A DNA stretch of 64,000 bases from Candidatus Portnoybacteria bacterium (GTDB lineage: Bacteria; Patescibacteriota; Minisyncoccia; Portnoybacterales; GWB1-42-6), in assembly GCA_016208745.1 (NCBI GenBank), contig JACQXN010000022.1:19212-83211 (forward strand), read 5' to 3'. Shown in pieces: positions 1,303 through 56,792 of the stretch (positions are counted from its first letter, which is position 1; every line of letters starts with the position of its first letter). The notes under the pieces are model-generated. The model ran no database searches. It saw only the letters and a program-made list of their open reading frames with translations, and was not told the origin of the DNA. The position numbers were made by a program, and so were the translations under genes.

Positions 1303-1374
1303 TCCTCTGTATTCCCTCCTTTGGAAAAAGAGGGCTTGCGCCGCCTCTTAAAAAGGCGGGGTGAAGAGTGGATT
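1303..1374. repeat. GC-rich hairpin element (family B copy), intergenic
   Basis: Hairpins CCCTCctttggaaaaaGAGGG and CCGCCtcttaaaaaGGCGG followed by ggggtg. Same module architecture as 2055, 6457, 8289, 45667, 47688 and 56006. Confidence 0.6.
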
Positions 1375-1410
1375 TTGGGAAATTATCACAAATCACCCTG
1401 TCCCAAGTTT

Positions 1411-2013
1411 TTACTCTTCGTTAATTCTCGGTCTTTTTTCAATTTTCACTACTTTTTCCTCCTCCACCAATTCAAGTACTTTTTCTATTAAAGCCTTGGG
1501 GTCTGAATCATAAACTATTTTTCCTGAACCACGCTTGGCCCGCTCCACAATTTCTTCTATCATATCCGACATTCCGCCAGTACCAGTCAAAATGCCGATT
1601 GGTTTTTTATCCTCAAAAGCAATAGTAAATTCATTCAAAGTTCCCATGCGGCCGCAAATTATAATTACCGCATCCGAGGATCTGGTTAGCAAAAGATTCC
1701 GGCCCGCATATTCAAAGCCGGTATAAATAATCATATCAAAATAGTCAACCGGCAGGCGATAGCTTTTAACATGGGCGATTTCTGAAGCCGCCGGAGAGAG
1801 CCCAATGGAAATTCCGCCTTCTTCTTTGGCGCCAATAGCCGCCCAATAAGGAATGCCGGTGGTAGCACCAGTCATTAAAACTCCGTTGTGGCGGACGATT
1901 TCCCGTCCCACTTCTTTGGCTTTTTCAAGAGCTTCTGGCGCGCAACATTCGGTTTTGGCTGCGCCAGAAACGCAAATTTTGTATTTTAGATAGCTTTTTG
2001 CAACTTTTTCCAT
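1411..2013 (-). CDS. LOG family / TIGR00725 Rossmann-fold protein (putative nucleotide 5'-monophosphate nucleosidase)
   Basis: Motifs GATTGIPYWAA and ICGRMGTLNEF match the LOG-family GGxGTxxE signature; 200 aa. Confidence 0.7.
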   Translation of the reverse strand: MEKVAKSYLKYKICVSGAAKTECCAPEALEKAKEVGREIVRHNGVLMTGATTGIPYWAAIGAKEEGGISIGLSPAASEIAHVKSYRLPVDYFDMIIYTGFEYAGRNLLLTRSSDAVIIICGRMGTLNEFTIAFEDKKPIGILTGTGGMSDMIEEIVERAKRGSGKIVYDSDPKALIEKVLELVEEEKVVKIEKRPRINEE

Positions 2014-2054
2014 GATTTATACAGATAAACGCTGATATACAGATAGGATTTAAC

Positions 2055-2123
2055 TCCTCCCAGCCTCCTCTTTAAAAAAGAGGAAGAGCTCCCTCTCTTA
2101 TTTTAAGAGAGGGGTGGGGTGAG
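2055..2123. repeat. GC-rich hairpin element (family B copy), intergenic
   Basis: CCTCTTTaaaaaAGAGG and CCCTCTCTTAttttAAGAGAGGGG, then gtggggtgag. Confidence 0.6.
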
Positions 2124-2132
2124 TTAAATTTT

Positions 2133-2166
2133 ATCCGTATATCCGTAGAAAATCCGTATTCCGTAG
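2133..2166. repeat. Four direct repeats of ATCCGTA(T/G), possible operator-like site upstream of LOG gene
   Basis: atccgtat atccgtag aaa atccgtat tccgtag read directly; lies between the 2202 stop and the 2013 start. Confidence 0.45.
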
Positions 2167-2201
2167 CTATATTTTATCTTGACTCCCCTTAAAAGTCCAG
2201 C

Positions 2202-3599
2202 TTACTCTAACTCTACTGTACTCCCCATTTCTGGCACCTGCGCGTCCAAGCCCATCTCATCTCTTATAATTTGCGCCAAAACTCCTGCTGGCTCCTCTTC
2301 TCCGTGAACAACAAAAACTTTCTTGATTGGTTTACAAATATTGCACAGCCATTCTAATAACCCTTTTTGGTCGGCATGCGCAGAATAACCGGTGAAATTT
2401 TTAATCTTTGCCTTAACCTGAATCTTTGCGTCCAAAATTTCAACTTCTTTTTCCCCCTCCATAATTCGGCGGCCCAATGTTCCTTTGGCCTGGTAGGTGA
2501 TCAAAAGAAGAATATTTCTTTCGCCTGACAAATAAAGAGATTCATGGTGTATAATCCGGCCGCCTTGTGACATGCCAGAGCCGGCAATAATAACTTTTGG
2601 CGGAGGAATATTGTTTATTTTTTTTGAGTCTTTAATGGAGTGAGTAAACTGAAGGCCGGGGAATTTAAATATATCGTCACCTGACTTAATTAAGTTTCCC
2701 GCTTCTTGATTAAAATATCTCTCATGTTTTTTATAGACATCTGTTATATCATGCGCCAATGGACTATCAATAAAAATCGGGATTTGCGGAATACACTTAT
2801 TCTCTGCCAGCTCATTTAAATGAAAAAGCAACTGCTGGGTCCGCTCAAGGGCAAAGCTGGGAATCATTAAAACGCCATTTTTTCTAATTGCTTCTTCAAT
2901 AACATCTTCAATAATATTTTTTGCCTCGTCTGCTTTTTCGTGCAACCTGTCGCCATAAGTTGATTCTATCAAGACATAATCTGCCTCCTCAATTACTTCC
3001 GGCTTTCTTAAAATCGGCACCGGATAATTTCCTAGATCCCCCGAGAAGACAATAACAGATTTTTTATCCTGGGCTTGCTCGCCTCGCTGAAGCTCCGGCG
3101 AAGCGGGTCGAAGGATTACTTTAATTACGGCCGACCCCAGAATATGTCCGGCTTCAAAAAATTCAAAAGAAATTTCATCAGAAATTTTTGTTTCTTGATG
3201 ATATTCTGTTGGTATAAACAACCCCATGATCTGATCTATGTCTTTTTTACTAAAAAGAGAGAGCTTGCCTACGTGCTTGGCTTTCTCGGCTAAAATTTTC
3301 CTGCTGTCTTCTAAAATCAAGTGGACAAAATCTATGGTTGGCGGCGTGGCAAAAATTCTTCCGTTAAACCCGCCCTCAACTAAATTAGGGAGCCGGCCAA
3401 TATGGTCAAGGTGGGAATGAGTTATTAAAACCGCGTCAATTTCTTTTGGATTAAAGGAAAACGGCTCATTATTTTTTGCCTCCAGCTCTTTTTCGCCTTG
3501 AAACGCGCCGCAATCAACTAGGATTTTTGATTTTTCTGTTTCTAATAAATAACAGGCGCCGGTTACAACTTTAGCGCCGCCGCAAAAAGTAAGTTTCAT
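2202..3599 (-). CDS. beta-CASP family MBL-fold ribonuclease (RNase J / CPSF-like)
   Basis: HSHLDH metallo-beta-lactamase motif near the N-terminus; 465 aa with beta-CASP and RNA-metabolising MBL C-terminal regions. Confidence 0.75.
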   Translation of the reverse strand: MKLTFCGGAKVVTGACYLLETEKSKILVDCGAFQGEKELEAKNNEPFSFNPKEIDAVLITHSHLDHIGRLPNLVEGGFNGRIFATPPTIDFVHLILEDSRKILAEKAKHVGKLSLFSKKDIDQIMGLFIPTEYHQETKISDEISFEFFEAGHILGSAVIKVILRPASPELQRGEQAQDKKSVIVFSGDLGNYPVPILRKPEVIEEADYVLIESTYGDRLHEKADEAKNIIEDVIEEAIRKNGVLMIPSFALERTQQLLFHLNELAENKCIPQIPIFIDSPLAHDITDVYKKHERYFNQEAGNLIKSGDDIFKFPGLQFTHSIKDSKKINNIPPPKVIIAGSGMSQGGRIIHHESLYLSGERNILLLITYQAKGTLGRRIMEGEKEVEILDAKIQVKAKIKNFTGYSAHADQKGLLEWLCNICKPIKKVFVVHGEEEPAGVLAQIIRDEMGLDAQVPEMGSTVELE

Positions 3600-4116: not shown

Positions 4117-4225
4117 CTGATATGTGATTCCTCCAAAAAAAACAAAACCCTTAGCAACCACGCTAGGGGTTATTTTTATCCTTATATTCTTTATTCGCCA
4201 TTGCAAAAATTTTGTTATAAAATCG

Positions 4226-4324
4226 CGGCGAGCTGAGTGTTTAAAAAATTACCTACGGAGGAGCAAAGCGACGAGTTTAGGAGGTAATTTTTAACAAAGC
4301 GAGTCCGATTTTATCAAAATTTTA
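4226..4324. repeat. ~100 nt structured repeat (family D copy 1) with 11 bp stem AAAAATTACCT/AGGTAATTTTT
   Basis: Near-identical architecture and flanks to 15258-15356; compensatory stem changes between copies. Confidence 0.6.
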
Positions 4325-4398
4325 TGCTTGGCGAGAGTTTTTTGCCTACTTTTTGTCGGTACAAAAAGTAGGTCCTTGCCGTCTTTAGATAAAGACGA

Positions 4399-5730
4399 TT
4401 AACGCATTCCTCTAAGTTCTTCTTTTACAATCTCGCTCTCCTGCCAAGGAATCTTTTTCCCATTTTCCACACACATCCAAACCTCTCCCCCTTTGCCAGT
4501 TAGAATAACCGCATCTCCGGCTTTCGCTAAACTCAATGCTTTTTTTATCGCTTCACGACGATCTAAAATTTCATAGACATTGGAAATTGGTAATTGGGTA
4601 TTGGAAATTCCAGATTTTATCTCCGATAAAATCTGGGTTGGGTCTTCATCATAAGGATCTTCATTGGTAATAATTACATAATCCGCGTATTCTCCAGCCA
4701 AGCGGCCTAAAGCCGCTCTTTTTGATTTATCGCGGCCGCCGCCCTGTGCGCCAAGCAAAGCAATAATTTTTCGCGGATTAAAAATTTTAAGCGCTTTGTA
4801 AGCCGATTCAAGAGAAGCCGGCTCGTGAGCATAATCAACGATAACTGTAAATGGCTGACCTTCATTAATTACTTCCAAACGGCCCGGCGCTGGTTTGGCA
4901 TTTTTTAGAGCCTCTTTTATTTTATCGACTCCGATTCCTTGCGAAATTGCTACGCAAATTGCCGCCGCAGCGTTATACATATTAACCTCGCCGATAAGAG
5001 GCGTAATAAAATTTTCACTGTTAAAATCGAATTCGGTTCTATCCGAGGCCAATTTAATGTTTGCAATTTGAAGCTTTCCAAATCCTCCCCAACCCTCCCT
5101 AAAGGGAGGGAGCGATTCCCCTCCTTTAGGAGGGGCTAGGGGAGATTTTAAAAAATACCCCATTTTTTTCGCCATTGGAATTTTCAAAAAATATTCTGTG
5201 CTCTCATCATCCAAATTATAAACTCCAATTCCGTTTTTCTTTTTCGCCACGGCTTCAAATAATTTTAATTTTGCTGCCCGATAATTTTCAAAACTGCCGT
5301 GGCGCTCAATGTGCTCGGGCGATAAATTAGTAAAAACCGCGACTGAATAATTAATGCCTTTGTGCCGATGCTGCAGAATTCCCTCTGAAGAAGTTTCAAT
5401 TACCGCGTATTTGCATCCTTCGCTAACCATTTGCCGCAATAATTTCTGCAATTTGAATCGGCCAAGCATAGTCTGCTTATAATCATTTATCCACTCCTTA
5501 TCCCTAATTCTAAAATTTACCGTTGTCGCCATGCCGGTTTTAAACCCCGCGCCCTGCAAAATCTGAGCGATTAAATTACAAGTCGTTGTTTTCCCTTTTG
5601 TCCCGGTCACGCCAATTACAATCAATTTCCGTGACGGAAAACCATACACAAGCGCGCCCAAATAAGCGAGCAACCAATGGTACCAACTAAAAATAAAATT
5701 CGGGATAAGTTTTTTTAGAATATTTTTCAT
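4399..5730 (-). CDS. Mur ligase family protein (MurE-like UDP-MurNAc-peptide ligase) with N-terminal membrane anchor
   Basis: GVTGTKGKTTT P-loop and DYAHEP motif of Mur ligases. N-terminus is a TM helix rather than a MurE N-domain. Carries an in-frame palindromic element at 5079-5149. Confidence 0.75.
   Translation of the reverse strand: MKNILKKLIPNFIFSWYHWLLAYLGALVYGFPSRKLIVIGVTGTKGKTTTCNLIAQILQGAGFKTGMATTVNFRIRDKEWINDYKQTMLGRFKLQKLLRQMVSEGCKYAVIETSSEGILQHRHKGINYSVAVFTNLSPEHIERHGSFENYRAAKLKLFEAVAKKKNGIGVYNLDDESTEYFLKIPMAKKMGYFLKSPLAPPKGGESLPPFREGWGGFGKLQIANIKLASDRTEFDFNSENFITPLIGEVNMYNAAAAICVAISQGIGVDKIKEALKNAKPAPGRLEVINEGQPFTVIVDYAHEPASLESAYKALKIFNPRKIIALLGAQGGGRDKSKRAALGRLAGEYADYVIITNEDPYDEDPTQILSEIKSGISNTQLPISNVYEILDRREAIKKALSLAKAGDAVILTGKGGEVWMCVENGKKIPWQESEIVKEELRGMR
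5079..5149. repeat. GC-rich nested-hairpin element (family A copy) inserted in-frame within Mur ligase CDS
   Basis: AAATCCTCCCC..CCCTCCCTAAAGGGAGGG..CCCCTCCTTTAGGAGGGG..GGGGAGATTTT. Translated in-frame on the minus strand as SPLAPPKGGESLPPFREGWGGF. Confidence 0.8.
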
Positions 5731-6105: not shown

Positions 6106-7194
6106 TCATCTTAAAATATTTCTTGTCGCTTTGTATATCTTGTACCACCATCTATTAAAAATGTAATTGTGCGTGCCGCAAAACGCGACTTCATACCCCC
6201 CAAAACCCTTCTTAAATCGGCTCACACCCGGCCATTTTTGTTCGTCATAACCCCAAAAATCATAATATTTACAGCCCTGATTTTTGACAAATTTTATCTG
6301 CTCCCATTGTAAAAGATGCGGCGCCATCAAACTGCGAGACTCGTTATCGGATCCGCCATGAATATAAATTGCTGTACTATTAAAAATATTTACTAAATTC
6401 GCGGCGATTGTTTTTCCTTGATATTGGGCTAAAAATAATAAATTCTCAAAATTTAACTCACCCTCGCTCTCTCTTAAAATAAGAGAGGGAATTACGTCTG
6501 TATTCTCTCCCCCTCTTAAATTAAGAGGGGGGTGGGGGGAGTTATTTCCAATTTGCAACTGCTTTCTATAATATTCTTTCTCAAAAATCTTTATCCCCTG
6601 TCTTTTTGCGGTCTGATTAAGCAAACTCCAAAATTCTTCAAAGTCTTTTTCGTTATACTCTGTCCTCCTTATTGTTACGCCTTTGCGCTGGGCAAGATTA
6701 ATATTATAACGTGTTTTCTCATGCATAGCCGCCAACAATTCTTCTTCACTTCTATCCAAATTTAAAATCAGAGTCCTGCTTGGCTGGATATCTTTTGTTT
6801 TTGAAAAACCCAACCCCCTTAAATCCTCCCTACTTATTTCAAAAGTCGGCTCGATTCTTAAAAATATCGCATTTTCTTGTTTAGCTAGATGTTTAACTTC
6901 CCGTAAAAAGCCCTGCATTCGCAGGAGATTCATCTCCGCCCGATGGCGGATCAGAATGGCATCTCGTGTTAATTCTGAAATTATTAGAGGGCCTCGCGGG
7001 CAATACAGATAGCTTTTCCCCAGCGGTAAATTATATTTAATTATTAAACCTGCCCAATCTTTGCCTTTCAGGAAAAAAGTTTTTCTCCCTAATGATTTCT
7101 GAAACTCCGCCCATTCTAAAGACTGCAAAAAACCGCCGCCTTGCTTCAAAACAAACTCATTCCAATCCTCTTTTCCGCCTTCATAAATAGCCAT
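6106..7194 (-). CDS. FemAB-family peptidoglycan interpeptide-bridge aminoacyltransferase
   Basis: FLQSLEWAEF N-terminal and LLQWEQIKFVKNQGCKYYDFWG C-terminal motifs typical of FemABX. Likely ATG at 7194 (track start 7239 is TTG). Contains an in-frame repeat at 6457-6541. Confidence 0.75.
   Translation of the reverse strand: MAIYEGGKEDWNEFVLKQGGGFLQSLEWAEFQKSLGRKTFFLKGKDWAGLIIKYNLPLGKSYLYCPRGPLIISELTRDAILIRHRAEMNLLRMQGFLREVKHLAKQENAIFLRIEPTFEISREDLRGLGFSKTKDIQPSRTLILNLDRSEEELLAAMHEKTRYNINLAQRKGVTIRRTEYNEKDFEEFWSLLNQTAKRQGIKIFEKEYYRKQLQIGNNSPHPPLNLRGGENTDVIPSLILRESEGELNFENLLFLAQYQGKTIAANLVNIFNSTAIYIHGGSDNESRSLMAPHLLQWEQIKFVKNQGCKYYDFWGYDEQKWPGVSRFKKGFGGYEVAFCGTHNYIFNRWWYKIYKATRNILR
6457..6541. 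repeat. GC-rich hairpin element (family B copy) inserted in-frame in FemAB CDS
   Basis: TCTCTCTTAAAATAAGAGAG and CCCCCTCTTAAATTAAGAGGGGGG hairpins. Encodes SPHPPLNLRGGENTDVIPSLILRESEGE inside the ORF. Confidence 0.75.
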
Positions 7195-7231
7195 ATTCTT
7201 AATGGCATTGTAGCGTAAAAAAATCCGAAAG

Positions 7232-7262
7232 ACAAACAAAAAAGGCAGTTATGACTGCCTTT
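7232..7262 (-). terminator. Rho-independent terminator for gene 7261-7671
   Basis: Hairpin AAGGCAGTtatgACTGCCTT followed on the minus strand by a T-run. Confidence 0.5.
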
Positions 7263-8277: not shown

Positions 8278-8288
8278 AATCTATTTTT

Positions 8289-8377
8289 TCCTCCTCCCCT
8301 CAGATGAGGGGAGGATTGAGGTGGGGTGCTGAAAAACACCACCACCCCCTGCCCCCTCCTCAACTGAGGAGGGGAAG
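8289..8377. repeat. GC-rich hairpin element (family B copy), intergenic
   Basis: CCTCCTCCCCTCAGATGAGGGGAGG..GAGGTGGGGTG..CCCTCCTCAACTGAGGAGGGG. Near-identical to 45667-45799 except for an internal ~50 nt indel. Confidence 0.7.
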
Positions 8378-8429
8378 AAAAAATTAAATAGTTTCTGCTT
8401 TCAGTATACCTCCCGCCCGCGCGAAATTC

Positions 8430-8745: not shown

Positions 8746-8842
8746 ATTACGTCTCCTCTGTGAGTTTTTAATGCCTGAAAATAATAAATAAAACGAACTA
8801 TCTAGCGAATTGAATTAATAATTGTATACCATAAACCAATTT

Positions 8843-10921
8843 ATGTCAACCTTCAAGCTCCGCGCACCATTTCGCCCAACAGGTGACCAGCCAGGCGCAA
8901 TAAATGCACTAGTTAAAAATTTAAAGACTGGCATTAAGCATCAGACGCTTTTGGGTGTGACAGGAAGCGGCAAAACTTTTACTATGGCCAATGTGATTGA
9001 GAAAAATCAAAAACCAACATTGGTTATTTCGCATAATAAAACTTTGGCGGCCCAGCTTTATCAGGAATTTAAAGAGTTTTTTCCGGAAAACGCCGTGCAT
9101 TTTTTCGTCTCCTATTATGACTACTACCAACCCGAAGCCTATATCCCCCAAACCGACACCTATATTGATAAAGACGTAAAAATCAACGATGAAATTGACC
9201 GCCTGCGCCACGCCGCCACGCAGGCGCTTTTAACCAGAAATGACACGATTGTTGTGGCTTCAGTTTCTTGCATTTATAATATCGGCTCGCCAGAAGAATA
9301 TCAGAATTTGAGTTTAGAGTTTAAGAAAGGCCAATTTTTGAGCCGCCAGAAATTTTTAAGGCATTTAATATCTCTGCAATACCAGCGATCGGATGTTGAT
9401 TTCAAAAGAGGCACATTTAAAGTCCGGGGCGATTTAATTGAGGTCTGGTCAGCCACTGGCGAACAAATATTAAAATTTGATTTTTTTGGCAATCAGATAG
9501 AAAAAATATCAGAAATCAATTTGCCCAATAATATTTTAAAAGCAGACAAGGAAAAAGAAGTTAAACAGGCAAGAGTTTTTCCGGCTAAATACTGGGTCGC
9601 GCCAGAGCAGAAATTGGGCTTAGCAATAAAAAATATTAAATTGGAGCTTGAAAACCAGCTGGAAAAATTAAAAAGACAGAATAAAATTCTTGACGCCGAA
9701 CGGCTTAAGCGGCGCACCAACTTTGACCTTGAAATAATCAAAGAAACCGGCTATTGTCACGGCGTTGAAAATTATTCACGGCATTTGGAATTTCGCAAAC
9801 CCGGCGAGCCGCCTTTCACCTTATTGGACTATTTTCCAAAAGACTATTTATTGATTATTGACGAATCGCACATGACTGTTCCCCAGCTTAACGGAATGTA
9901 TTTTGGCGACCGCTCGCGCAAAGAAACTTTAATTGAGTATGGCTTCCGCTTGCCTTCGGCGCTTGATAACCGACCGCTTAAATTTAATGAGTTCGAGAAA
10001 AAGGTTGATCAAGTTGTCTATACTTCGGCAACGCCCAGTAAGTACGAAATCGAGAAATCAAAGTCTGTCTGCACGAAAAAAAATCCTCCCCATCCCTCCT
10101 CCGTATCAAGTACGGGGCAAGCTCTAAAGGGAGGGAGTGATTCCCCTCCTTTAGGAGGGGCAAGGGGAGATTTTTGCATCATCCAGCAGCTCATCCGCCC
10201 CACTGGCCTGCTTGATCCGGCAATAGAAATCCGTTCAACTAAAAATCAAATTCCACATTTAATCAAGCAAATCAAAGAAACGGTCGAAAGTGGTGCCAGG
10301 GTTTTAGTAACAACAATTACCAAACGCCTCTCCGAAGACTTATCGGAATATTTGCAAGAGCAAGGAATAAAAGCCCAATATCTGCATTCTGAAATTAAAA
10401 CATTGGAACGACCGGAAATTTTGAAAGATTTAAGACTTGGCAAAATCGACGTTTTGGTTGGCATTAATCTTTTAAGAGAGGGGCTGGATTTACCAGAAGT
10501 TGGGCTGGTGGCAATTTTGGATGCTGACAAGGAAGGCTTTTTGCGCAATGACACAACGCTTATCCAAACAATGGGCCGCGCTTCTCGCCATCCGCAAGGC
10601 CGCGTTATTATGTATGCTGACAAGATTACCCAATCAATGAAACGCGCAATTTCTGAAACCAATCGCCGGCGCAAAATTCAGGAAAGCTATAATAAAAAAC
10701 ATAAAATCACGCCCCAGCCAATTAAAAAAGGCATCCGGCCAAGCATTGTAGAAATTACAAAAATGCCAAAAGGAGCGCTAAAAACTGAGAAAGAATATCT
10801 GGAAGAATACATTAAGGAGCTTGAGTTTAAAATGGAACTGGCTAATCGGAATTTGCAATTTGACGAAGCAATGAGACTGCAAGAACAAATTAATAAATTA
10901 AAAAGGGCGACGAAAAAATAA
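8843..10921 (+). CDS. uvrB: Excinuclease ABC subunit B (UvrB) with ~33 aa in-frame palindromic-element insertion
   Basis: GVTGSGKTF Walker A, helicase motifs, C-terminal UVR domain. Segment CTKKNPPHPSSVSSTGQALKGGSDSPPLGGARGDFC interrupts the conserved ELEKS...RPTGLLDP region. The track start at 8822 is TTG; the ATG at 8843 is more likely. Confidence 0.9.
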   Translation: MSTFKLRAPFRPTGDQPGAINALVKNLKTGIKHQTLLGVTGSGKTFTMANVIEKNQKPTLVISHNKTLAAQLYQEFKEFFPENAVHFFVSYYDYYQPEAYIPQTDTYIDKDVKINDEIDRLRHAATQALLTRNDTIVVASVSCIYNIGSPEEYQNLSLEFKKGQFLSRQKFLRHLISLQYQRSDVDFKRGTFKVRGDLIEVWSATGEQILKFDFFGNQIEKISEINLPNNILKADKEKEVKQARVFPAKYWVAPEQKLGLAIKNIKLELENQLEKLKRQNKILDAERLKRRTNFDLEIIKETGYCHGVENYSRHLEFRKPGEPPFTLLDYFPKDYLLIIDESHMTVPQLNGMYFGDRSRKETLIEYGFRLPSALDNRPLKFNEFEKKVDQVVYTSATPSKYEIEKSKSVCTKKNPPHPSSVSSTGQALKGGSDSPPLGGARGDFCIIQQLIRPTGLLDPAIEIRSTKNQIPHLIKQIKETVESGARVLVTTITKRLSEDLSEYLQEQGIKAQYLHSEIKTLERPEILKDLRLGKIDVLVGINLLREGLDLPEVGLVAILDADKEGFLRNDTTLIQTMGRASRHPQGRVIMYADKITQSMKRAISETNRRRKIQESYNKKHKITPQPIKKGIRPSIVEITKMPKGALKTEKEYLEEYIKELEFKMELANRNLQFDEAMRLQEQINKLKRATKK
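10081..10172. repeat. GC-rich nested-hairpin element (family A copy) in-frame in uvrB
   Basis: ~85 percent identical over 92 nt to 42961-43054, with the same outer AAATCCTCCCC/GGGGAGATTTT and two inner hairpins. Confidence 0.85.
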
Positions 10922-15189: not shown

Positions 15190-15257
15190 AACGCTCCTTT
15201 AATATGTATTAAAAATTCAGCCTTCTCCTTGCATCGAAAAATTTTGCAAGAAAATTG

Positions 15258-37191: not shown

Positions 37192-37194
37192 TCA

Positions 37195-42940: not shown

Positions 42941-42960
42941 GATTAACTTGGCTACTCGTT

Positions 42961-43054
42961 AAATCCTCCCCAACCCTCTCCCCGTATCAAGTCCGGGGCA
43001 AGCTCTAAAAGGAGAGAGCGATCCCCCTCCTTTAGGAGGGGTTAGGGGAGATTT
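42961..43054. repeat. GC-rich nested-hairpin element (family A copy), intergenic
   Basis: Near-identical to the uvrB-internal copy at 10081-10172. Confidence 0.8.
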
Positions 43055-43065
43055 TAGCTAGTCTC

Positions 43066-45128: not shown

Positions 45129-45167
45129 AAAATCCCCCTTAATCCCCCTTTAAAAAGGGGGAGATAG
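45129..45167. repeat. GC-rich hairpin element (family B short copy), intergenic
   Basis: aaaatcccccttaatCCCCCTTTAAAAAGGGGGagat; 39 nt near-identical to 56052-56090. Confidence 0.7.
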
Positions 45168-45639: not shown

Positions 45640-45666
45640 TTATTGTGGGCTACGAAACACTCTTTT

Positions 45667-45799
45667 CCTCCTCCCCTCAGATGAGGGGAGGATTGAGGTG
45701 GGGTGATGATTATTCGCGTGGACGCATTTGCATGAATTCGCGCCATTTAAATGCAATCAACACCACCCCCTACCCCTCCTCATCTGAGGAGGGGAGGAG
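45667..45799. repeat. GC-rich hairpin element (family B copy with ~50 nt internal palindromic insert), intergenic
   Basis: Same termini as 8289-8377 (CCTCCTCCCCTCAGATGAGGGGAGG ... CATCTGAGGAGGGGAGGAG). Confidence 0.7.
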
Positions 45800-47638: not shown

Positions 47639-47687
47639 TAGAATAAATTAAAAAGTAAAAAAAGAATTATAAGCGTTATCCCCCTCT

Positions 47688-47773
47688 TTATAAAAGAGGG
47701 ACTAAGGGGGATTTATATTGAAGACTATTTTTAAAATCCACCCCAGCCCTCCTTTTTTAAAGGAGAGAGCAGG
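47688..47773. repeat. GC-rich hairpin element (family B copy) separating the two VirB4 ORFs
   Basis: Reverse-complement relative of the element at 56006-56090. Lies between the stop at 47777 and the ATG at 47638, which are in the same frame; the intervening 138 nt contains stops. Confidence 0.75.
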
Positions 47774-47776: not shown

Positions 47777-48409
47777 TTATACATTAATAACCGGCCTTTC
47801 TCTGGCGCCGGGGTTATACATTTTATAAAGAAGCTCAACTAATTCATCGTCATTTAGGGCAACTGTTTTTAAACTGCAGGCAGAGAGTCCGGAAGATATG
47901 TATTCCATTCTTTGCCAAAGGCCGGCGCGCATCTGTTGGAAAGTTGGGAGCTTTGTTTCCCCGTTTTTTTTGCCAAACGATTTTTTCATCTTTTCAATAA
48001 GACCGGTGGCTTGTTTTTCAATGCTTTGGGTAAAGGGCACGATGACATAAAAATAAGTGCTCATAATATTAACCATTTGCGATAAATTTTTCACAAAATC
48101 AATATATTCGCTCGTTTGGATTTTTAAAAGCTCGTTTTCCTGTTCAACTCTTTTTTGTTCCAAGGTTTTTAAATAATCAGAAACATCAAATTTTCTGGTT
48201 GAGACCAGAATTTGGATTGGAAAATCAAGCGAGTTTAAAAATTCCTGATAACGATAAGTGATGGCTTCCTGCTCTTCGCTGGATTTTAAAGAGAAATTAA
48301 GAGAGCCGATCATCAAAACCCCCTTTAAAGAGCCGTCTTTCATTAAGATAGCGCCTTCTTTGATTTCAGTGACTGGGATTTTTTTTTTTTTTCTTGCGCC
48401 CTGATTCAT
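47777..48409 (-). CDS. VirB4-family ATPase N-terminal domain (separate ORF); contains A14 tract at codons 6-10
   Basis: GAILMKDGSLKGVLMIGSLNFSLKSSEEQEAI...PIQILVSTRKFDVSDYLK matches the N-domain of Gram-positive VirB4 (Tn916 Orf16/PrgJ-like). T14 on the plus strand at 48379-48392. Confidence 0.7.
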   Translation of the reverse strand: MNQGARKKKKIPVTEIKEGAILMKDGSLKGVLMIGSLNFSLKSSEEQEAITYRYQEFLNSLDFPIQILVSTRKFDVSDYLKTLEQKRVEQENELLKIQTSEYIDFVKNLSQMVNIMSTYFYVIVPFTQSIEKQATGLIEKMKKSFGKKNGETKLPTFQQMRAGLWQRMEYISSGLSACSLKTVALNDDELVELLYKMYNPGARERPVINV

Positions 48410-48432
48410 AAAGTTAATTTAAATATCAAATT

Positions 48433-48497
48433 GTCATTCCTGCGAAAGCAGGGATCCAGGTTTTATGAGTCTGGATTCCCGCTTTCGCGGGAATGAC
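48433..48497. repeat. Family C hairpin repeat (GTCATTCC-TGCGAAAGCA-GGGATCC / GGATTCCC-GCTTTCGC-GGGAATGAC)
   Basis: Internal hairpins CCTGCgaaaGCAGG and TCCCGCtttcGCGGGA with outer GTCATTCC/GGAATGAC inverted repeat. Relatives at 56371-56462 and 56878-56900. Confidence 0.65.
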
Positions 48498-48553
48498 ATA
48501 GAATGTTCTAGGGATTTTGTTGATGTCAGACGTCAGCAGATTAATTGCCTAAT

Positions 48554-48859
48554 TTAAATTCGATTTTTCTTCCAAATAAACATCCTTCCTTTAATTATAT
48601 AATTAATAGAAGCGCCAAGAATGGTAATAAACGGCCGGCCGTTGATTTTAAGAAATGCCAAAGCCAGCGCAAAAAGAGTCAAGGGAATAGAAGCTAGCAT
48701 AAAGAGCCAAAACTCGGCATATTGATACAAAAAGAAAAGGATTGCGCCGGTTCCGCCAAGATACCCAAACTGCTTTAAAGTCAGCGGCCCGACTATTTTG
48801 TCCTCTACTTCTAAAAATTGGGGGACATTGAATTGCATATAAAAAAGCTCAAAGCTCAA
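48554..48859 (-). CDS. Small two-TM protein (VirB3/PrgI-like candidate)
   Basis: 101 aa, two hydrophobic helices, positioned immediately upstream of VirB4 as is typical for VirB3. Confidence 0.4.
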   Translation of the reverse strand: MSFELFYMQFNVPQFLEVEDKIVGPLTLKQFGYLGGTGAILFFLYQYAEFWLFMLASIPLTLFALALAFLKINGRPFITILGASINYIIKGRMFIWKKNRI

Positions 48860-48911
48860 AACTCAAATATCAAAGCACGATTTCACGCTTGGTAATATTA
48901 TCGGTCTTCGG

Positions 48912-48982
48912 AAATCCTCCCCAACCATCCCTAAAGGGAGGGGGTTGTTCCCCTCCTTTAGGAGGGGTTAGGGGAGATTTTA
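48912..48982. repeat. GC-rich nested-hairpin element (family A copy), intergenic
   Basis: AAATCCTCCCCAACCATCCCTAAAGGGAGGG..CCCCTCCTTTAGGAGGGGTTAGGGGAGATTTT. Confidence 0.8.
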
Positions 48983-49041: not shown

Positions 49042-50055
49042 TTACTGCTGGTTAAAATCCTTTCTTAAATTAACAATATTTCCCTCCAGTTTTGGCGTTG
49101 GTTTGGGAGCTTGCAGAACCGGGCCAGATAAATCTTCGCTGGAAACAGGCTCTTTGTAAGCGTCTTTTGTTGGGATCGACGACGGGGGTGGTTGATAGGT
49201 AGGTTTTTGGGGGAGACCGCTGATTGGCACTCCTCGCGGGGGTTGGGGTTGAGGTATAGGCTGGGCAGGTGCGGACTTTGGCGCAGGAGCGCTCGGCATG
49301 GGTTTTTCTAAAATCAACAATCCGGTTTCTTTGGAAAAAGGCAATTCTATTTGCTCGTCAAAAGATTTTAAAACTTGATTTAAAGCCACTCTTTCTTGCT
49401 CTTTTAAGGCTCGGCCATTTTGGCTCTCATATATATAGCGCATTCTAACAAGCGCCAAATCCTGTTCTGGAAAACCGGTTCTGAATTTAGCGTAATCAGT
49501 CAGCCAATTCCCTATTGAAGGAAGCCTCGGGCTTTCTGAATCAGGCAGCCTAATCGGACTTTCGGTTATTTTCTGATTGGCAATTTCTGGTTTTTGATTG
49601 ATAGCAGAGGCGATTGTTTGGTTTGCGATTTCCTGCGGAGCTGGTTTGGGAGTCTCGTTTTGAATCGGAGCGGAATTATTTTCTTCTAGTTCCAATAACT
49701 CTGCTTTATGGGTTGGCGGAGTTGCCGTGCGCGACCAATTCTGTATTAGCGATTCAATGTTTGGGAAATATTGTTTAAGCGGCAGAAATATCGTTTTTGC
49801 TAAAGCGCAAGATAGGCCATTCGCAATTTCCATCGGAGCGGGCAATTCTCTTTGAAAGATTTCTGGCATTTTTTCCAAAGGCGCGTCATTAACAAAAACA
49901 AGGCCGATTAACTTCGCTATTTTACCCCGGCCATCAAGCGCGATGCCGTAACTTGTGCCGACGCCGTGAACTGTCTGGGTTGGCAGGTCAGAAAGTAAAA
50001 CATTTTTTACCGGCTCCGGAAGATTATTCACTTTTTCTCTAAAAGCCAGATCCAT
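49042..50055 (-). CDS. Hypothetical protein with Pro-rich C-terminus (T4SS-like cluster)
   Basis: 337 aa; PxP-rich tail (PSAPAPKSAPAQPIPQPQPP). Confidence 0.45.
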   Translation of the reverse strand: MDLAFREKVNNLPEPVKNVLLSDLPTQTVHGVGTSYGIALDGRGKIAKLIGLVFVNDAPLEKMPEIFQRELPAPMEIANGLSCALAKTIFLPLKQYFPNIESLIQNWSRTATPPTHKAELLELEENNSAPIQNETPKPAPQEIANQTIASAINQKPEIANQKITESPIRLPDSESPRLPSIGNWLTDYAKFRTGFPEQDLALVRMRYIYESQNGRALKEQERVALNQVLKSFDEQIELPFSKETGLLILEKPMPSAPAPKSAPAQPIPQPQPPRGVPISGLPQKPTYQPPPSSIPTKDAYKEPVSSEDLSGPVLQAPKPTPKLEGNIVNLRKDFNQQ

Positions 50056-53959: not shown

Positions 53960-54942
53960 TATTTAAGATTTTTTTTAAGGTTGTTTATTTCCATTGTTAT
54001 TTTTTCAGACGCCGAACCGCTTTTCTGGTATTCTTCTATGGCGATTAAGGCTTTCAGCGGATCTTCCTGAGCATTGCTTATAACCAAGAAAACATTACTG
54101 CTATGAAGCATTGTTGATAAAAGAGTCTTTTGGAATTCAGCATAAAATTTGGGCGTTGAAATGTTTTTTAATTTTTCATAGGATTCATGGAAAGTTTTTT
54201 GCGCTATTTTAACTTTTGAAAAATCACTATTTGTCATAGCCCATTCGATATCCTGGTCTGAGACCTGAATATTTTTTGAGTTTTCTTTGATAATATTTAA
54301 AACAGCAGTTAAATAGGCAATTCTGTCTTCGTTCCTATCGCTTTGGGAAATTTTTATGTCGTTATCGGTTATGCTGGGCGGCAAAACTTTTTTTAATTCC
54401 TCATTGCTTATATTTTGGAGCATTTTTTGAAATTCCGGCATATTCTCAAGCTCTTCTGCGCTATACATTTCGCCTGTGTCTGGATTTATAAGTACGCTTT
54501 TGCCTTGTTTTATGCCTCCGCCTATTCCTTTTGCAAAAATTTCGGTCCAGTTATTTGTGCTAGCTAATATTTTTTCTTTTTCGCTAAAACCAGTTTGAGC
54601 ATTACTGCCTTTTTGCATTGGGTTGTAGCCAGACGCCACTTCTTCGCCGTCCAAATATCCATCGCCATCAGAATCTTGATTATTGATATCTGTTCCGTAT
54701 TTTGCTTCTTCCCAATCTCTTAAGCCATCGTTATCAGAATCTTTAAATTTGTCTTTTATAGCCGAAGTTACAGAAGCAGTTCCTTTGCCGATTTTTTTAA
54801 AAAGATTTATAGGATTAAATTTTCCTTCGGCGTAAAAAAAACTGCCAAAAACCAATAGTAAAATTAGCAGTATCACGCCCGCTGCAAAAATACTTTTTTT
54901 TCTGTTCTCAAGCATACCCAGTATATCAACTTCCAGAGCCAA
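53959..54942 (-). CDS. Membrane-anchored protein with thrombospondin type-3-like Ca-binding repeats
   Basis: DSDNDGLRDWEE and DSDGDGYLDGEE motifs after an N-terminal TM; 327 aa. Confidence 0.5.
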   Translation of the reverse strand: MALEVDILGMLENRKKSIFAAGVILLILLLVFGSFFYAEGKFNPINLFKKIGKGTASVTSAIKDKFKDSDNDGLRDWEEAKYGTDINNQDSDGDGYLDGEEVASGYNPMQKGSNAQTGFSEKEKILASTNNWTEIFAKGIGGGIKQGKSVLINPDTGEMYSAEELENMPEFQKMLQNISNEELKKVLPPSITDNDIKISQSDRNEDRIAYLTAVLNIIKENSKNIQVSDQDIEWAMTNSDFSKVKIAQKTFHESYEKLKNISTPKFYAEFQKTLLSTMLHSSNVFLVISNAQEDPLKALIAIEEYQKSGSASEKITMEINNLKKNLK

Positions 54943-55234
54943 GCGCCGCTTTCTTGTGGCGCCTGTATTCTAAAAGTCTTAAACCTAAAAATCTACGACC
55001 CTGAGTGGTTTTCAAATAATGCTCTCGGCGCTTGGCATCTTCTTGATTAAGACAGCCTTCAAAATATATTAACTTGAACGGTAATCGGAATTTTGTAGAG
55101 AAAGATAATCCCTTATTATGTTCTTCTATTCTTTTTTTAAGATTAGCGGTATAGCCAACATAGCAATCTTTATCTTTTAGGCTCTCTAAAACATAAACCC
55201 AGAAGAACATACTGGAAGTTGTATTACTGGGCAT
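54926..55234 (-). CDS. GIY-YIG nuclease family protein
   Basis: FFWVYVLESLKDKDCYVGYTANLKKRIEEHN (GIY...YIG motif); 102 aa. Confidence 0.75.
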   Translation of the reverse strand: MPSNTTSSMFFWVYVLESLKDKDCYVGYTANLKKRIEEHNKGLSFSTKFRLPFKLIYFEGCLNQEDAKRREHYLKTTQGRRFLGLRLLEYRRHKKAALGSGS

Positions 55235-55264
55235 AGAATTTATTAACTTAATTTTAACACAGAT

Positions 55265-55306
55265 TTATCCACAAAAAAATAACCGATTTTCAGTCAGTTA
55301 TCCACA
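55265..55306. promoter_or_regulatory. Two perfect consensus DnaA boxes (TTATCCACA) in direct orientation
   Basis: 55265-55273 and 55298-55306. Followed by three CAATAACCA-like direct repeats (55279-55350) in an AT-rich spacer. Confidence 0.45.
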
Positions 55307-55412
55307 ATTAGGGAAATGCAATAACCAATAATCAAAAAACAATAACCAGGCAAATTTTAATAATCAATTTTTCAATATTCAGATTATTTTAGTCCGATGC
55401 CGGATTTCTCTA

Positions 55413-55739
55413 TTATTGAAGAAGAATTCTTTTTAGCTCGTCGGCCTCCTTTATTAGGGGCTGGATTTCTTTAGATAAGCCTTCGTTTGTTTCTGATATC
55501 AATATCAACCAATAGATTGTTTCTTTCGCCTCTTTTCTTGCTATTCTTAGTCGATGGACAAAGTCCTTTTTACTCAACGCGTCATTAGCTTCTATATAAT
55601 TTGCTCCGATTGAAGTTCCCGCTCGAAAGCCCTGCCGGATTAATTCTATATTGATTATGTTTTTTTGCAGAATCTTACATGCTCTAGCCATCTTTTTGCT
55701 AAAATCAAGCGTTCTTTCTTCTAAATCAAAATTATGCAT
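55413..55739 (-). CDS. Four-helix-bundle protein (TIGR02436; 23S rRNA intervening-sequence protein family)
   Basis: GTSIGANYIEAN and AKETIYWL motifs; 108 aa. Confidence 0.75.
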   Translation of the reverse strand: MHNFDLEERTLDFSKKMARACKILQKNIINIELIRQGFRAGTSIGANYIEANDALSKKDFVHRLRIARKEAKETIYWLILISETNEGLSKEIQPLIKEADELKRILLQ

Positions 55740-55796
55740 ATTGTTTCGGTTATTGTTTATTTGTCTATTGATTATTATTTGGAGCTTGTTTTTTGG

Positions 55797-56792
55797 TTAT
55801 TGGTTATTTAAATTTAATTCCTTCGTTATCCTTGTCCAATCTTCAGCTCTCAATGTTTCTGCCCTTTGGCTTGGCGAAATACCAGCTTTTTTTAAGGCCT
55901 CTTCAACTATTTTGCGGTTAATTTTTAACCCTTTTGTTAAGTTACCGGCTAATTGTTTGCGGGGAGCAGAAAAACCGGCGCGGACGACTTTAAAAAAATC
56001 ACTTGCCCCCTCCTTTTTAAAGGAGGGCTGGGGTGGATTTTCTTTTTCTACAAAATCCCCCTTAATCCCCCTTTTATAAAGGGGGAGATGGCTTTTTGGT
56101 ATAATCTTAATTATCGCCGAATCGACTTTTGGTTGCGGCCAGAAACAGCTTTTGGAAACATAATGCAAAATTTTTGGCTGGGCGTAAAATTGCACCGAAA
56201 CCGCCAAGAGACTCATTTCGGGCGGCTCGGCACAAATTCTTTGGGCTACTTCTTTTTGTACCATTAAAATCATTTCGCTTGGCGGATTATTTGATTCCAG
56301 AAACTTTCTAATAACGGGCGAGGTTATATAGTAAGGAAGATTGGCGACGAGTTTGTAATTATATACTTTTGTCATCCCGGGCTTGAACCGGGATCCAGAC
56401 GTCGTTCCTGCGAAAGCAGGGATCTGCTCATTATCCTGGATTCCCGTTTTCACGGGAATGACAAAAAGCGAGGTAATTGGAAATTTCAAGGCATCGCCTT
56501 CTATAATCTCTGCATTTCCATAATCTCTTAGTGTCTCTTTTAAAATTTGAATCATATTTCTCCCTTTTTCAATTGCGATAACCCTTTTTGCTTTTTTGGC
56601 TAATTCTTGTGTTAGCGTGCCAAGGCCCGGTCCAATTTCCAAAATCGTGTCGGCTTTTTTTATTTGTGCGGCTTCAATAATCTTATCTAATATATTTTTG
56701 TCAATTAAAAAATTCTGACCAAGCTGTTTTAGGGGCGTGGTGCCATATTTTGATAGCAGATATTTAATTGTTTGCGCGGATAAAAGGTTCAT
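55797..56792 (-). CDS. rsmA: 16S rRNA (adenine1518/1519-N6)-dimethyltransferase RsmA/KsgA carrying two in-frame repeat-element insertions
   Basis: SAM motif ILEIGPGLGTLT, NLPYYITSP catalytic motif, PQPKVDSAII. At 331 aa it is ~50-60 aa longer than typical KsgA. Confidence 0.8.
   Translation of the reverse strand: MNLLSAQTIKYLLSKYGTTPLKQLGQNFLIDKNILDKIIEAAQIKKADTILEIGPGLGTLTQELAKKAKRVIAIEKGRNMIQILKETLRDYGNAEIIEGDALKFPITSLFVIPVKTGIQDNEQIPAFAGTTSGSRFKPGMTKVYNYKLVANLPYYITSPVIRKFLESNNPPSEMILMVQKEVAQRICAEPPEMSLLAVSVQFYAQPKILHYVSKSCFWPQPKVDSAIIKIIPKSHLPLYKRGIKGDFVEKENPPQPSFKKEGASDFFKVVRAGFSAPRKQLAGNLTKGLKINRKIVEEALKKAGISPSQRAETLRAEDWTRITKELNLNNQ
56006..56090. repeat. GC-rich hairpin element (family B copy) in-frame in rsmA
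   Basis: CCCCTCCTTTTTAAAGGAGGG..ctggggtggatttt..aaaatcccccttaatCCCCCTTTATAAAGGGGGagatgg. Encodes ...KGDFVEKENPPQPSFKKEGA... inside KsgA. Confidence 0.75.
56371..56462. repeat. Family C hairpin repeat in-frame in rsmA
   Basis: GTCATCCCGGGcttgaaCCGGGAT..CCTGCgaaaGCAGG..GGATTCCCGttttcaCGGGAATGAC. Encodes FPITSLFVIPVKTGIQDNEQIPAFAGTTSGSRFKPGMT between DALKF and KLVANLPYY. Confidence 0.75.

Follow-up and report, generated by a model that had tools for sequence, protein, structure and literature searches.

A family of hairpin-and-mirror repeats in a Candidatus Portnoybacteria genome and its association with DUF559 endonuclease genes

What are the short GC-rich palindromes that recur between and inside the genes of this contig, and how do they come to be where they are? 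The window, by which we mean the whole stretch of 64,000 nt analysed here, contains ~20 repeat units distributed over 12 sites, each unit a GC-rich hairpin of ~35 nt. An earlier note, made from the letters alone, had described a dispersed palindromic repeat superfamily, and this observation is confirmed: all 12 positions that it named are real elements, its count of 13 is explained by the two units at position 56006, and its 'family A' and 'family B' are detected by a single covariance model. The genome had been called AT-rich, but with ~40% GC it is not strongly so, and the density given, ~1 copy per 5 kb, needs to be corrected for a copy-free stretch from 11 kb to 42 kb.

Repeat units and their arrangement

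Hairpins that pair perfectly and have a C-rich, all-pyrimidine 5′ arm of ≥6 nt are strongly enriched in the window (18 observed vs 0.46 expected from Markov-1 shuffles; 38 vs 8 if one mismatch is allowed). Only three hairpins have the opposite polarity with the G-arm first, and all three are junction artefacts of adjacent modules. A covariance model (R1) derived from unrelated metagenome sequences, namely from nothing but the flanks of the DUF559 cassettes described below, identifies 17 full-length units at E<0.01, with E down to 2e-14; it recovers exactly the window's sites, all matches falling within these 12 and none elsewhere in the window. No Rfam family matched. The sites are as follows (strand of units given as + or -).

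1312..1378 (-): hairpin plus second hairpin with G-rich tail; intergenic, between a SLOG/LDcluster4 gene (1411-2013) and a small EF-Tu_D2-like gene (1035-1301); the most degenerate copy, R1 matching 1312-1336 (E 0.0025) and 1341-1374 (E 0.53)
2050..2128 (units 2053-2087 +, 2090-2124 -): tails-outward dimer; intergenic, between an RNase J-like gene and the SLOG gene; DNA fold -21.3 kcal/mol, z -4.6
5079..5151 (units 5081-5112 +, 5116-5147 -): family A tails-outward dimer; in-frame in a Mur ligase gene, 4399-5730 (-), encoding LKSPLAPPKGGESLPPFREGWG
6453..6549 (units 6456-6490 +, 6506-6546 -): family B tails-outward dimer; in-frame in a FemAB-family gene, 6106-7239 (-), encoding ~30 aa (NSPHPPLNLRGGENTDVIPSLILRESEGEL)
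8283..8384 (units 8287-8317 -, 8345-8376 +): tails-inward dimer; 6 nt upstream of the ruvA start codon; DNA fold z -5.5
10080..10175: family A tails-outward dimer with a nested mini-hairpin of ~24 nt in the first loop; in-frame in uvrB, 8822-10921 (+), encoding ~38 aa (..KKNPPHPSSVSSTGQALKGGSDSPPLGGARGDF..)
42960..43056: another family A tails-outward dimer carrying this nested mini-hairpin; intergenic, between the convergent genes 41681-42940 + (Wzy_C) and 43066-44169 -
45129..45166 (+): single unit (tail-hairpin), its tail a perfect mirror of the arm; intergenic, in a type IV secretion-like cluster; R1 E 1.6e-12
45664..45798 (units 45664-45694 -, 45766-45796 +): tails-inward dimer with a 58-nt insert, 45705-45762, between the tails
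47677..47771 (units 47679-47713 -, 47735-47769 +): tails-inward dimer; intergenic, between 45812-47638 (VirB4/TraG-like) and 47777-48409; R1 E 2.4e-12 and 9e-10
48911..48982: family A tails-outward dimer; intergenic, between 49042-50055 and a PrgI-like gene (48554-48859)
56004..56090 (units 56006-56039 -, 56054-56088 +): tails-inward dimer; in-frame in ksgA/rsmA, 55797-56792 (-), encoding ..HLPLYKRGIKGDFVEKENPPQPSFKKEGASD..; R1 E 1.5e-11 and 2.4e-14

Each unit has a C-rich arm separated by an A/T loop from a G-rich arm; after a spacer or second loop of 2-3 nt (often TTA, also CTA or TGA) comes another G-rich block, a mirror of the G arm that ends in ATTT. On the opposite strand this reads as an AAATC-C-rich tail followed by the hairpin (unit consensus AATCYCCCC..; AATCCCCCCTAACCCCCC..). 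The stems extend over 6-7 G/C positions, or 9 with an A/T extension. What had been taken for an outer stem enclosing the hairpins is better described as two tails, each mirroring the arm of its own hairpin: the mirror identity of tail and adjacent arm is 0.91 within a unit vs 0.78 across units, and perfect tail mirrors make up 60% (43/72) within units vs 15% across them. The hairpins themselves are paired in 86% of cells, compared with 80.6% in shuffles (0/500), and show 55 double (compensatory) changes where 26.6 are expected, an excess that points to retention of the hairpin via compensatory changes. Folded as DNA, the elements have z-scores from -2.3 to -5.5, and none of the hairpins is followed by a T-run.

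Units are arranged as singlets, tails-outward dimers and tails-inward dimers. The R1 matches in the window form six tails-outward and four tails-inward dimers, the former being the most frequent form in the window. Gene-less tails-inward dimers with A/T spacers of ~10-16 nt are common. The internal palindromic insert reported for copy 45667 is present, albeit ~58 nt long (45705-45762) and weakly palindromic (-5.6 kcal/mol); it occupies the place that the DUF559 ORF takes in full cassettes. The high pairwise identities noted earlier hold on measurement: 87.6% for 10081 and 42961, 94% and 80% for the two units of 8289 and 45667, 88% for 45129 and 56052, and 85-87% per unit (78% overall) for 47688 and the reverse complement of 56006. 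To these can be added the 48911 element and 5079, with 90% identity.

Copies inside genes and among relatives

Placement is both intergenic and intragenic, as the earlier note had it: 4 of the 12 sites are dimers lying in-frame inside continuous ORFs with Pfam-supported identities, namely Mur ligase, FemAB, UvrB and KsgA. Every dimer has one stop-free frame per strand, and the intragenic family A copies (9/37) use only two frames. Copies in coding regions can therefore survive only in that open frame and in a tolerant surface loop, where they would be translated as a Pro/Gly-rich disordered insert. In the predicted structure of UvrB, insert residues 420-449 have pLDDT<50 and no secondary structure, consistent with a disordered loop. 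We infer that the in-frame inserts are neutral.

A presence/absence comparison with sister genomes, which the earlier note had proposed, reveals a syntenic sister (L033) that lacks every copy across 22 kb, including the 22-aa Mur ligase insert and the inserts in FemAB and UvrB. The spacer upstream of ruvA, which harbours a dimer here, measures ~545 nt compared with 25 nt in the sister genome. The FemAB site carries a family B element in the window genome vs a family A element in a second relative (L035), and the UvrB site is an insertion hot spot among relatives. The uvrB element of a relative is 88-91% identical to the window copies, the uvrB genes themselves being 71% identical. Recent mobility had been proposed from the similarity of the copies. 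Mobility or copying is supported indirectly, by such sequence comparisons; strain-level insertion polymorphism was looked for and none was found, nor did the comparisons yield a clean empty/filled pair at near-identical sequence or a target-site duplication visible at filled vs empty sites.

The similarity might, as the earlier note allowed, have been confined to the window or have reflected faulty assembly. The exact 31-mer of family A is present in nine other species-level genomes or assemblies, all nine of them Patescibacteria and from independent studies. Since units occur in at least nine independent Patescibacteria genomes, they are neither window-specific nor an assembly artefact. Short-read contigs end inside units, and over element-bearing stretches the window is matched at 100% identity by independent Logan contigs.

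DUF559 endonuclease cassettes

At 80 metagenome loci, small genes for endonucleases of the DUF559 (Vsr-like/EDxHD) type have flanking inverted units whose tails face the gene. Among 74 independent metagenome DUF559 loci, the hairpin is found upstream in 63, downstream in 64 and on both sides in 56, compared with 8.7% of control windows; conversely, all six DUF559 genes among 32 pattern-selected loci adjoin a unit. In Patescibacteria, the gene bracketed in this way is ~0.35 kb long and encodes an EDxHD-type PD-(D/E)XK protein of 116-120 aa. Its ATG adjoins the upstream tail, which provides a Shine-Dalgarno-like GGAG, and its stop codon overlaps the downstream tail. The flanked genes, which lie outside the window, match PF04480 at 5e-35 and PDB 3HRL at 1e-18; they contain the DUF559 core E-x-D-G-x-x-H, with VIEIDGGQH invariant, and are free-standing in intergenic spacers rather than resident in group I introns or inteins. 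We know of no DUF559 protein of this type with demonstrated activity.

Gene and flanks are also related in their divergence. The more identical two DUF559 proteins are, the more alike are their flanks (Mantel r 0.70, 0/500 permutations), a correlation that could stem from host phylogeny, and two DUF559 paralogues of one genome have different unit types. Cognate specificity is weakly supported, because units pair only slightly better with their own cassette partner than with units of other loci (17.6 vs 14.7). No DUF559 gene was found in the window or in ~17 kb of adjoining sequence of the same genome. A DUF559 cassette is probably located on another contig of this genome: its protein, P0223 (MBI4708619.1), and the window's UvrB (MBI4709300.1) are among the proteins deposited for Candidatus Portnoybacteria MAGs, 681 accessions from each other, its contig stems from the same SRR121133xx-1134xx run series, and its flanking unit is near-identical to the units at 56006 and 47735.

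On balance, we lean towards the view that the window's sites are gene-less copies of a DUF559-associated, BoxC-like repeat, which together with its gene would constitute a small selfish cassette. Two inverted units, tails inward, plus a DUF559 gene would form the cassette, much like a RAYT gene flanked by REPs; the singlets and dimers of the window would derive from it as non-autonomous elements that the DUF559 nuclease copies or mobilises in trans. That the nuclease acts on the units and drives their mobility, and the way in which they move, are inferred. Tails-outward dimers are not the expected product of a simple internal deletion of the cassette, an observation that speaks against a cassette origin.

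Known systems and competing explanations

The general intrastrand triplex motif, here defined as three blocks of 6-15 nt separated by loops of 1-6 nt, consists of a C-rich block followed by a complementary G-rich block and a third block that mirrors the adjacent stem across a short loop, and both features are seen in our units; judged by sequence, their architecture is of the BoxC/PIT/TM 'intrastrand triplex motif' type. BoxC/PIT/TM (TMECO) repeats are known from E. coli, other Enterobacteria and cyanobacteria (Hoyne & Maher 2000; Holder et al. 2015, PMC4666352), and triplex formation has been shown for E. coli TMECO (PMC4666352). The likeness includes the succession of C-stem, loop, G-stem, 3-nt loop and mirrored second G-stem (with TTA as the 3-nt loop common to TMECO type A and family A), high sequence conservation, the lack of a strand bias, frequent inverted pairs and an association with variable loci. 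The sequences and stems differ. The consensus of TMECO sensu stricto (5′-CCCTCNCCC N3-6 GGGNGAGGG N3 GGGNGAGGG) has 0 matches in the window, and R1 does not match the E. coli TMECO copy. TMECO were reported to be always intergenic, and Holder et al. 2015 (PMC4666352) saw no link between them and mobile elements in E. coli; in our family, one site in three of the window lies in-frame within a gene, and units bracket DUF559 genes.

We regard the window family as analogous to REP/RAYT and to Rickettsia palindromic elements (RPE). RPE-type in-frame palindromic repeats (Ogata et al. 2000), as outlined in PMC10969869 and PMC3733652, resemble our family by description: a palindromic repeat in-frame in functional, unrelated housekeeping genes of a small-genome bacterium, a tolerated extra peptide, and uvrB as a host gene in both cases. 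They belong to another phylum, and RPE-1 is reported to measure ~150 bp vs 70-100 bp here. REP/BIME/REPIN elements are imperfect palindromes of 20-40 nt with an unpaired tag (PMC3733652, PMC2817692, PMC3333891); they share with our units the head-to-head and tail-to-tail dimers, the preference for co-directional or convergent spacers, occasional intragenic copies in repair genes, and a single-copy nuclease gene flanked by inverted units ('REPtron'). The GTAG or CGTC tag is absent from our consensus, which sets the units apart from the REP/BIME super-families. RAYT is a HUH Y1 transposase, whereas the gene flanked by units here encodes a PD-(D/E)XK DUF559 protein; no Y1_Tnp domain was found in the 59 window ORFs scanned. 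MITEs such as Coxiella QMITEs and Anabaena MITEs (PMC5896051, PMC10969869) are likewise short and non-autonomous, with terminal inverted repeats and some in-frame copies, but here no target-site duplication was detected and the candidate parent encodes the 116-120-aa nuclease, not a DDE transposase. The inverted units match DUF559 cassette flanks; the sole IS in the window, of the IS1595 family (10931-11790), has 11-nt TIRs (AAGTTGGAACA) that are unrelated to them.

The repeats could alternatively be primary and spread otherwise, by recombination, hairpin replication slippage or another transposase, with DUF559 genes of the homing type inserting into tails-inward dimers; a multi-copy palindrome would be a safe target, as REPs are for some IS elements. 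A gene exactly between two tails shows the arrangement classically expected when a homing endonuclease gene splits its recognition site, and the DUF559/EDxHD group includes the proven homing endonuclease I-Bth0305I, according to PMC9403480 and PMC3424549. The frequency of gene-less tails-inward dimers agrees with this, as does the fact that units far outnumber DUF559 genes (~20 units and no gene in the window) and that E. coli genomes without ycjD retain 1-13 TM-like copies. Yet the co-divergence of gene and flanks and the paralogue-specific units fit a single evolutionary unit better than the repeated capture of host repeats, and the arrival of units at new sites inside genes is left unexplained. 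We consider this scenario rather unlikely.

It seems less probable still that the units are host-beneficial structural signals under selection, for instance stabilisers of mRNA 3′ ends, terminators, ribosome-binding modules, or non-B-DNA (triplex) elements with an organising or destabilising effect on the chromosome, with an incidental DUF559 association. Of the eight intergenic copies, seven reside in co-directional spacers and one in a convergent spacer, while divergent spacers have none, which is typical of REPs; by a count from the gene map, however, only ~7 of ~58 spacers are divergent, and the absence of copies there is unlikely to be significant. Several copies lie directly upstream of a start codon and add a GGAG motif (ruvA at 8277), the 31-mer is identical between species, and TM repeats, which adopt triplex form in vitro, are markers of unstable E. 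coli loci (PMC4666352). Against such roles stand the sites within essential genes, where a terminator would be harmful, the related genome devoid of copies over 22 kb of synteny, the missing T-runs and, as summarised in PMC4666352, the lack of promoter or terminator activity of PIT elements in E. coli. Low-complexity chance or assembly artefact (chimeric contigs, mis-joined repeats) could be suspected, given that the C/G homopolymer-like arms make cross-matches easy and that short-read contigs do break at elements; it is refuted by the enrichment with its strict polarity bias, the E-values of an independently built model, the elements that unrelated projects recovered in nine further assemblies and at 80 metagenome loci, and the identical Logan contigs.

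The mirror-repeat architecture, the BoxC/PIT resemblance, the in-frame translation and the DUF559 link go beyond the earlier note. To our knowledge, no function, origin or mobilising activity has been assigned to BoxC/PIT/TM repeats since the 1990s, and we know of no engine for RPE-type in-frame 'selfish DNA in genes'. CPR genomes with abundant units offer a large, clean natural dataset, and DUF559/YcjD is a specific, testable candidate enzyme with an existing E. coli member; if the nuclease link is true, DNA nucleases would gain a new structure-specific class whose substrate is defined. The units also explain a nuisance of CPR genomics: they fragment assemblies, give rise to false ORFs rich in Pro/Gly and, at recurrent hot spots, add length to conserved proteins, distorting alignments and phylogenies.

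More tentatively, small YcjD-type DUF559 nucleases might be the partner enzymes of BoxC/PIT/TM repeats across bacteria, from Patescibacteria to E. coli, and thus form a second REP-RAYT-like system. A nuclease of the PD-(D/E)XK/Vsr fold would then recognise a hairpin-plus-mirror, possibly triplex, DNA structure, and frequent insertion in CPR genomes would repeatedly strike permissive loops, as in UvrB, Mur ligase, FemAB, KsgA, PolA and MiaA. In a spread sample of 60 complete E. coli genomes, the median number of TM-like copies is 18 in ycjD-positive vs 9 in ycjD-negative genomes, a difference confounded by phylogroup. In E. coli K-12, a TMECO copy is situated ~150 nt downstream of ycjD, the only DUF559 gene examined there, and the ycjD stop codon lies inside a C/G hairpin.

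Reality and anatomy of the palindromic units

The GC-rich palindromes that the earlier note described as a dispersed superfamily with possible recent mobility are a real finding. The described element is present at every listed position, the pairwise identities between copies are correct (78-94%), and the interpretation is right as far as it was given. Perfect hairpins with a C-rich homopyrimidine 5' arm occur 18 times in the window versus 0.46 expected, and 38 times versus 8 expected if one mismatch is permitted; hairpins of the reverse polarity number only three in the window, each a junction artefact. Independent short-read contigs identical to the window stop inside elements, as multi-copy repeats should. 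The window yielded no Rfam match at the gathering threshold and no tRNA by ARAGORN, and the elements are therefore not a known RNA family.

The basic unit is ~35 nt long and reads, on one strand, AAATC, a C-rich tail, 2-3 nt, a C-rich arm, an A/T loop and a G-rich arm. The tail mirrors the adjoining arm and does not complement it; mirror identity within a unit is 0.91, versus 0.78 with tails and arms exchanged between units, and the mirror is perfect in 60% of units versus 15% after the exchange. Across 92 units from 35 sources, the hairpin is kept by compensatory changes from C:G to T:A. Because MAFFT mis-registers units with short loops, pairs were counted in a model-based alignment, which leans towards the model that it was fitted to: in it, 86% of cells are paired versus 80.6% in shuffles (0/500), and there are 55 double changes versus 26.6 expected. 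Folded as single-stranded DNA, the dimers form an outer stem with two hairpins (z-scores -2.3 to -5.5).

Arrangement of units in the window

45129: singlet unit
2055, 5079, 6457, 10081, 42961, 48912: tails-outward dimers
8289, 45667, 47688, 56006: tails-inward dimers
10102-10126 and 42983-43007: ~24-nt mini-hairpin (CCCCGTATCAAGTACGGGG + CAAGCTC) nested in one loop of copies 10081 and 42961

The mini-hairpin, a palindrome inside a palindrome, recurs in either orientation within the loops of family A units of different genomes, and is also found at ~6270-6320 of the compared locus L030 and in the UvrB homologue P0013.

An exact family A 31-mer retrieves 32 stretches in 9 other species-representative assemblies, all of them Patescibacteria. 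Carriage by phages was considered and rejected, the same 31-mer being absent from IMG/VR viral contigs. Strain-level presence/absence polymorphism was not found, as exact-protein look-ups gave only contigs 100% (one 99.98%) identical to the window; these contigs break within elements.

Copies inside genes

Four dimers are contained in continuous ORFs of clear identity, those of a Mur ligase, a FemAB-family protein, UvrB and KsgA/RsmA. Gene order is unchanged in the syntenic sister contig L033 (proteins 77-82% identical), which lacks the Mur ligase, FemAB and UvrB inserts; the unit model detects no significant unit across its 22 kb. No target-site duplication is visible between filled and empty FemAB, Mur ligase and UvrB sites, which at 77-82% amino acid identity are too diverged for boundaries to be placed. 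Another relative, L035, carries a family A dimer at the UvrB site that is also occupied in the window. At exactly one site in FemAB, there is a family A dimer in L035 and a family B dimer in the window, and a unit lies inside polA (DNA polymerase I) at L035 15608-15639, the window polA (16923-19151) being without one. Compared with the window, the L035 UvrB element shows 88% identity to the copy at the same position and 91% to the Mur ligase copy, whereas the uvrB genes are 71% identical; divergence of the elements thus does not follow that of the genes that host them.

Among 26 aligned UvrB proteins, the insert site of the window UvrB is filled in many lineages by unrelated inserts that derive from repeats, and the closest relatives have none there. 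The window UvrB insert (residues 420-449) is modelled by AlphaFold2 as a loop with pLDDT <50 and no secondary structure, flanked by confidently modelled domains. About one frame on each strand of a dimer is free of stops. Around 9 of 37 family A copies in ten genomes are intragenic, with hosts that include MiaA, another Mur ligase and an O-antigen-ligase-like protein, and these use only two frames, giving SPPLGG[VA]RGD[FL] or KSPL[AT]PPKGGE.

Other lineage-specific in-frame inserts, not GC-rich units

6930-6980: FemAB, amino acids ~88-103, ELTRDAILIRHRAEMN
~3070-3110: RNase J-like protein, amino acids ~165-178, RPASPELQRGEQAQ

Sister genomes hold yet different inserts, for example LPSDLSAVALAKEGALAKEG in the FemAB of L033, which suggests that small in-frame insertions are generally at high flux. 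Two further CPR hot spots with low-complexity inserts (SHKFGPNSLSNSH.., APEVRLQNAPRS..) are seen at columns 343-360 and 590-620 of the UvrB alignment, and the UvrB homologue P0011 carries an intein.

DUF559 cassettes and known repeat systems

The repeats are associated with cassettes of a small nuclease gene. Clustering of ORFs from 32 pattern-selected loci gave only one family common to three genomes, a recurrent neighbour protein of ~118 aa that matches Pfam DUF559 (PF04480) at 5e-35; it is YcjD-like (NCBIfam PRK09767), with 3HRL as its closest solved relative. The gene is bracketed by inverted units with their tails towards it, in the order (hairpin-TTAGGGGAGATTT)AAA-ATG ... TAA-(ATCCTCCCCAG-hairpin). 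A metagenome scan with the alignment of this protein as query recovered 80 DUF559 loci at 50-100% identity, 74 of which had enough flank for counting. A hairpin lies within 60 nt upstream of the gene in 63 of these 74, downstream in 64 and on both sides in 56, compared with 8.7% in control windows from the same loci. A covariance model made exclusively from 54 of the DUF559-flanking units detects, at E<0.01 (best 2.4e-14), 17 full-length units in the window, each of them within the 12 sites listed by the earlier note.

We are inclined, with modest confidence, to think that the DUF559 nuclease propagates the repeats. In the main rival reading, which we consider rather unlikely, DUF559 genes home into repeats already present; one member of the DUF559/EDxHD group is a proven homing endonuclease (PMC9403480, PMC3424549). 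Protein similarity and flank similarity co-vary among the cassettes (Mantel r 0.70, 0/500 permutations), and two DUF559 paralogues of one genome have different unit types; a test for cognate left and right units was only weakly positive. There is no DUF559 gene in the window or in ~17 kb of adjoining sequence of the same genome. The DUF559 protein MBI4708619.1 has an accession number 681 away from that of the window UvrB; its gene lies on a contig of the same run series, and the unit downstream of it (AAATCCACCCCACCCCTCCTTTAAAAAGG) nearly matches the window units at 56006 and 47735. Copy 45667 contains a 58-nt insert (45705-45762) between its tails, the position held by the DUF559 ORF in full cassettes. 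This insert begins with ATG and a 9-codon ORF, and has no likeness to DUF559 that is obvious by eye.

Overall, the elements belong to the BoxC/PIT-type repeat class, of which they form a CPR branch, and within genes they behave like Rickettsia RPEs. The unit has the layout of the published BoxC/PIT/TM 'intrastrand triplex motif', in the order of C-stem, loop, G-stem, 3-nt loop and mirrored G-stem, the 3-nt loop of TMECO type A being TTA; such motifs are abundant in E. coli and cyanobacteria, have no known function, and are reported as always intergenic and not tied to mobile genes (PMC4666352). The TMECO consensus has no match in the window, and the window elements hence represent another family within this architectural class. 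In-frame insertion is a likeness to RPEs and to intragenic REPs, which occur in uvr genes too (PMC10969869, PMC3733652). RAYT/REP systems likewise place a nuclease gene between inverted units; unlike them, the window units have no GTAG/CGTC tag or Y1 transposase, and a RAYT/Y1 transposase is absent from all window ORFs scanned. An IS1595 parent element was also rejected, as its terminal inverted repeat, AAGTTGGAACA, is unrelated to the units. Searches of open-access papers found nothing relevant linking DUF559 or ycjD with such repeats, and no description of palindromic, MITE or REP repeats of this kind in CPR/Patescibacteria.

In E. coli K-12, the stop codon of ycjD (a DUF559 gene) lies inside a C/G hairpin, with a TMECO/BoxC copy ~150 nt downstream; the region 1351000-1352300 also holds, after ycjD, a partial duplicate of the gene's own 3' end. 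The gene is present in 3378 of 5426 complete E. coli genomes. In an evenly spread sample of 60, TM-like matches number 8-27 (median 18) in the 37 ycjD-positive genomes and 1-13 (median 9) in the 23 ycjD-negative ones (Mann-Whitney p 1.7e-10). Phylogroup confounds this comparison, as groups A, B1 and C have ycjD in place of the eef operon (PMC12817139). Nor is the empty-site test clean, since ycjD-less genomes hold the eefRABCD operon at the locus (PMC12817139). Replacement of eef by ycjD also took place twice independently, in ST69 and ST182.

Genome setting and other repeats nearby

The window, from a metagenome-assembled genome of Candidatus Portnoybacteria (Patescibacteria/CPR), has a GC content of ~40%. 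Its UvrB matches NCBI protein MBI4709300.1, encoded on a 95-kb contig, at 100% identity. The probable replication origin region lies within the window, with dnaA, dnaN, a turn in GC skew and, at 34-36 kb, a stretch of 30% GC.

Other features of the window

33500-37200: probable replication origin; dnaN and dnaA (minus strand), rnpA-yidD-yidC (plus strand), the 30%-GC stretch, A/T palindromes (~35080-35200), cumulative GC-skew minimum
48431-48498, 56370-56475 (inside ksgA), 56876-56907: second palindromic family, GTCATTCC(T/C)GCGAAAGC(A/G)GGAATCC, unrelated to the GC-rich unit
23036-23139, 30699-30805: two paralogous ~105-nt elements, upstream of ruvB and of a PBP1A-type gene
10931-11790: IS1595-family insertion between uvrB and rpsT; DDE_Tnp_IS1595, zinc ribbon, 11-nt TIRs
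54926-55739: two small free-standing genes adjoining ksgA, one for a 102-aa GIY-YIG nuclease, the other for a 108-aa '23S rRNA intervening sequence protein'
4205-4325, 15237-15357: direct repeat of 121 nt (76% identity between copies), each copy in an intergenic spacer
18450-18478, 19194-19291, 56802-56974, 60403-60452: A/T-rich intergenic repeat families (TTTGGATTTTGG.., AATTTCCAATTACTAATTCC..)

One copy of the second palindromic family is translated in-frame in KsgA as ..VIPVKTGIQDNEQIPAFAGTT.., and in other CPR genomes the UvrB hot spot is occupied by this family (VIPAKAGIQ..). The ~105-nt elements combine a near-perfect stem of 25-26 bp with a conserved GC-rich loop, and have no Rfam match above noise. 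The IS1595-family insertion is absent from both syntenic relatives. Genes of the GIY-YIG and '23S rRNA intervening sequence protein' types recur beside repeats in the CPR loci L015 and L024, and may be further selfish minicassettes. The 121-nt direct repeat is 81% conserved in L035 (7667-7777). Among the A/T-rich repeats, 56802-56974 is an inverted repeat with 66-nt arms, and one Logan contig terminates near 60522.
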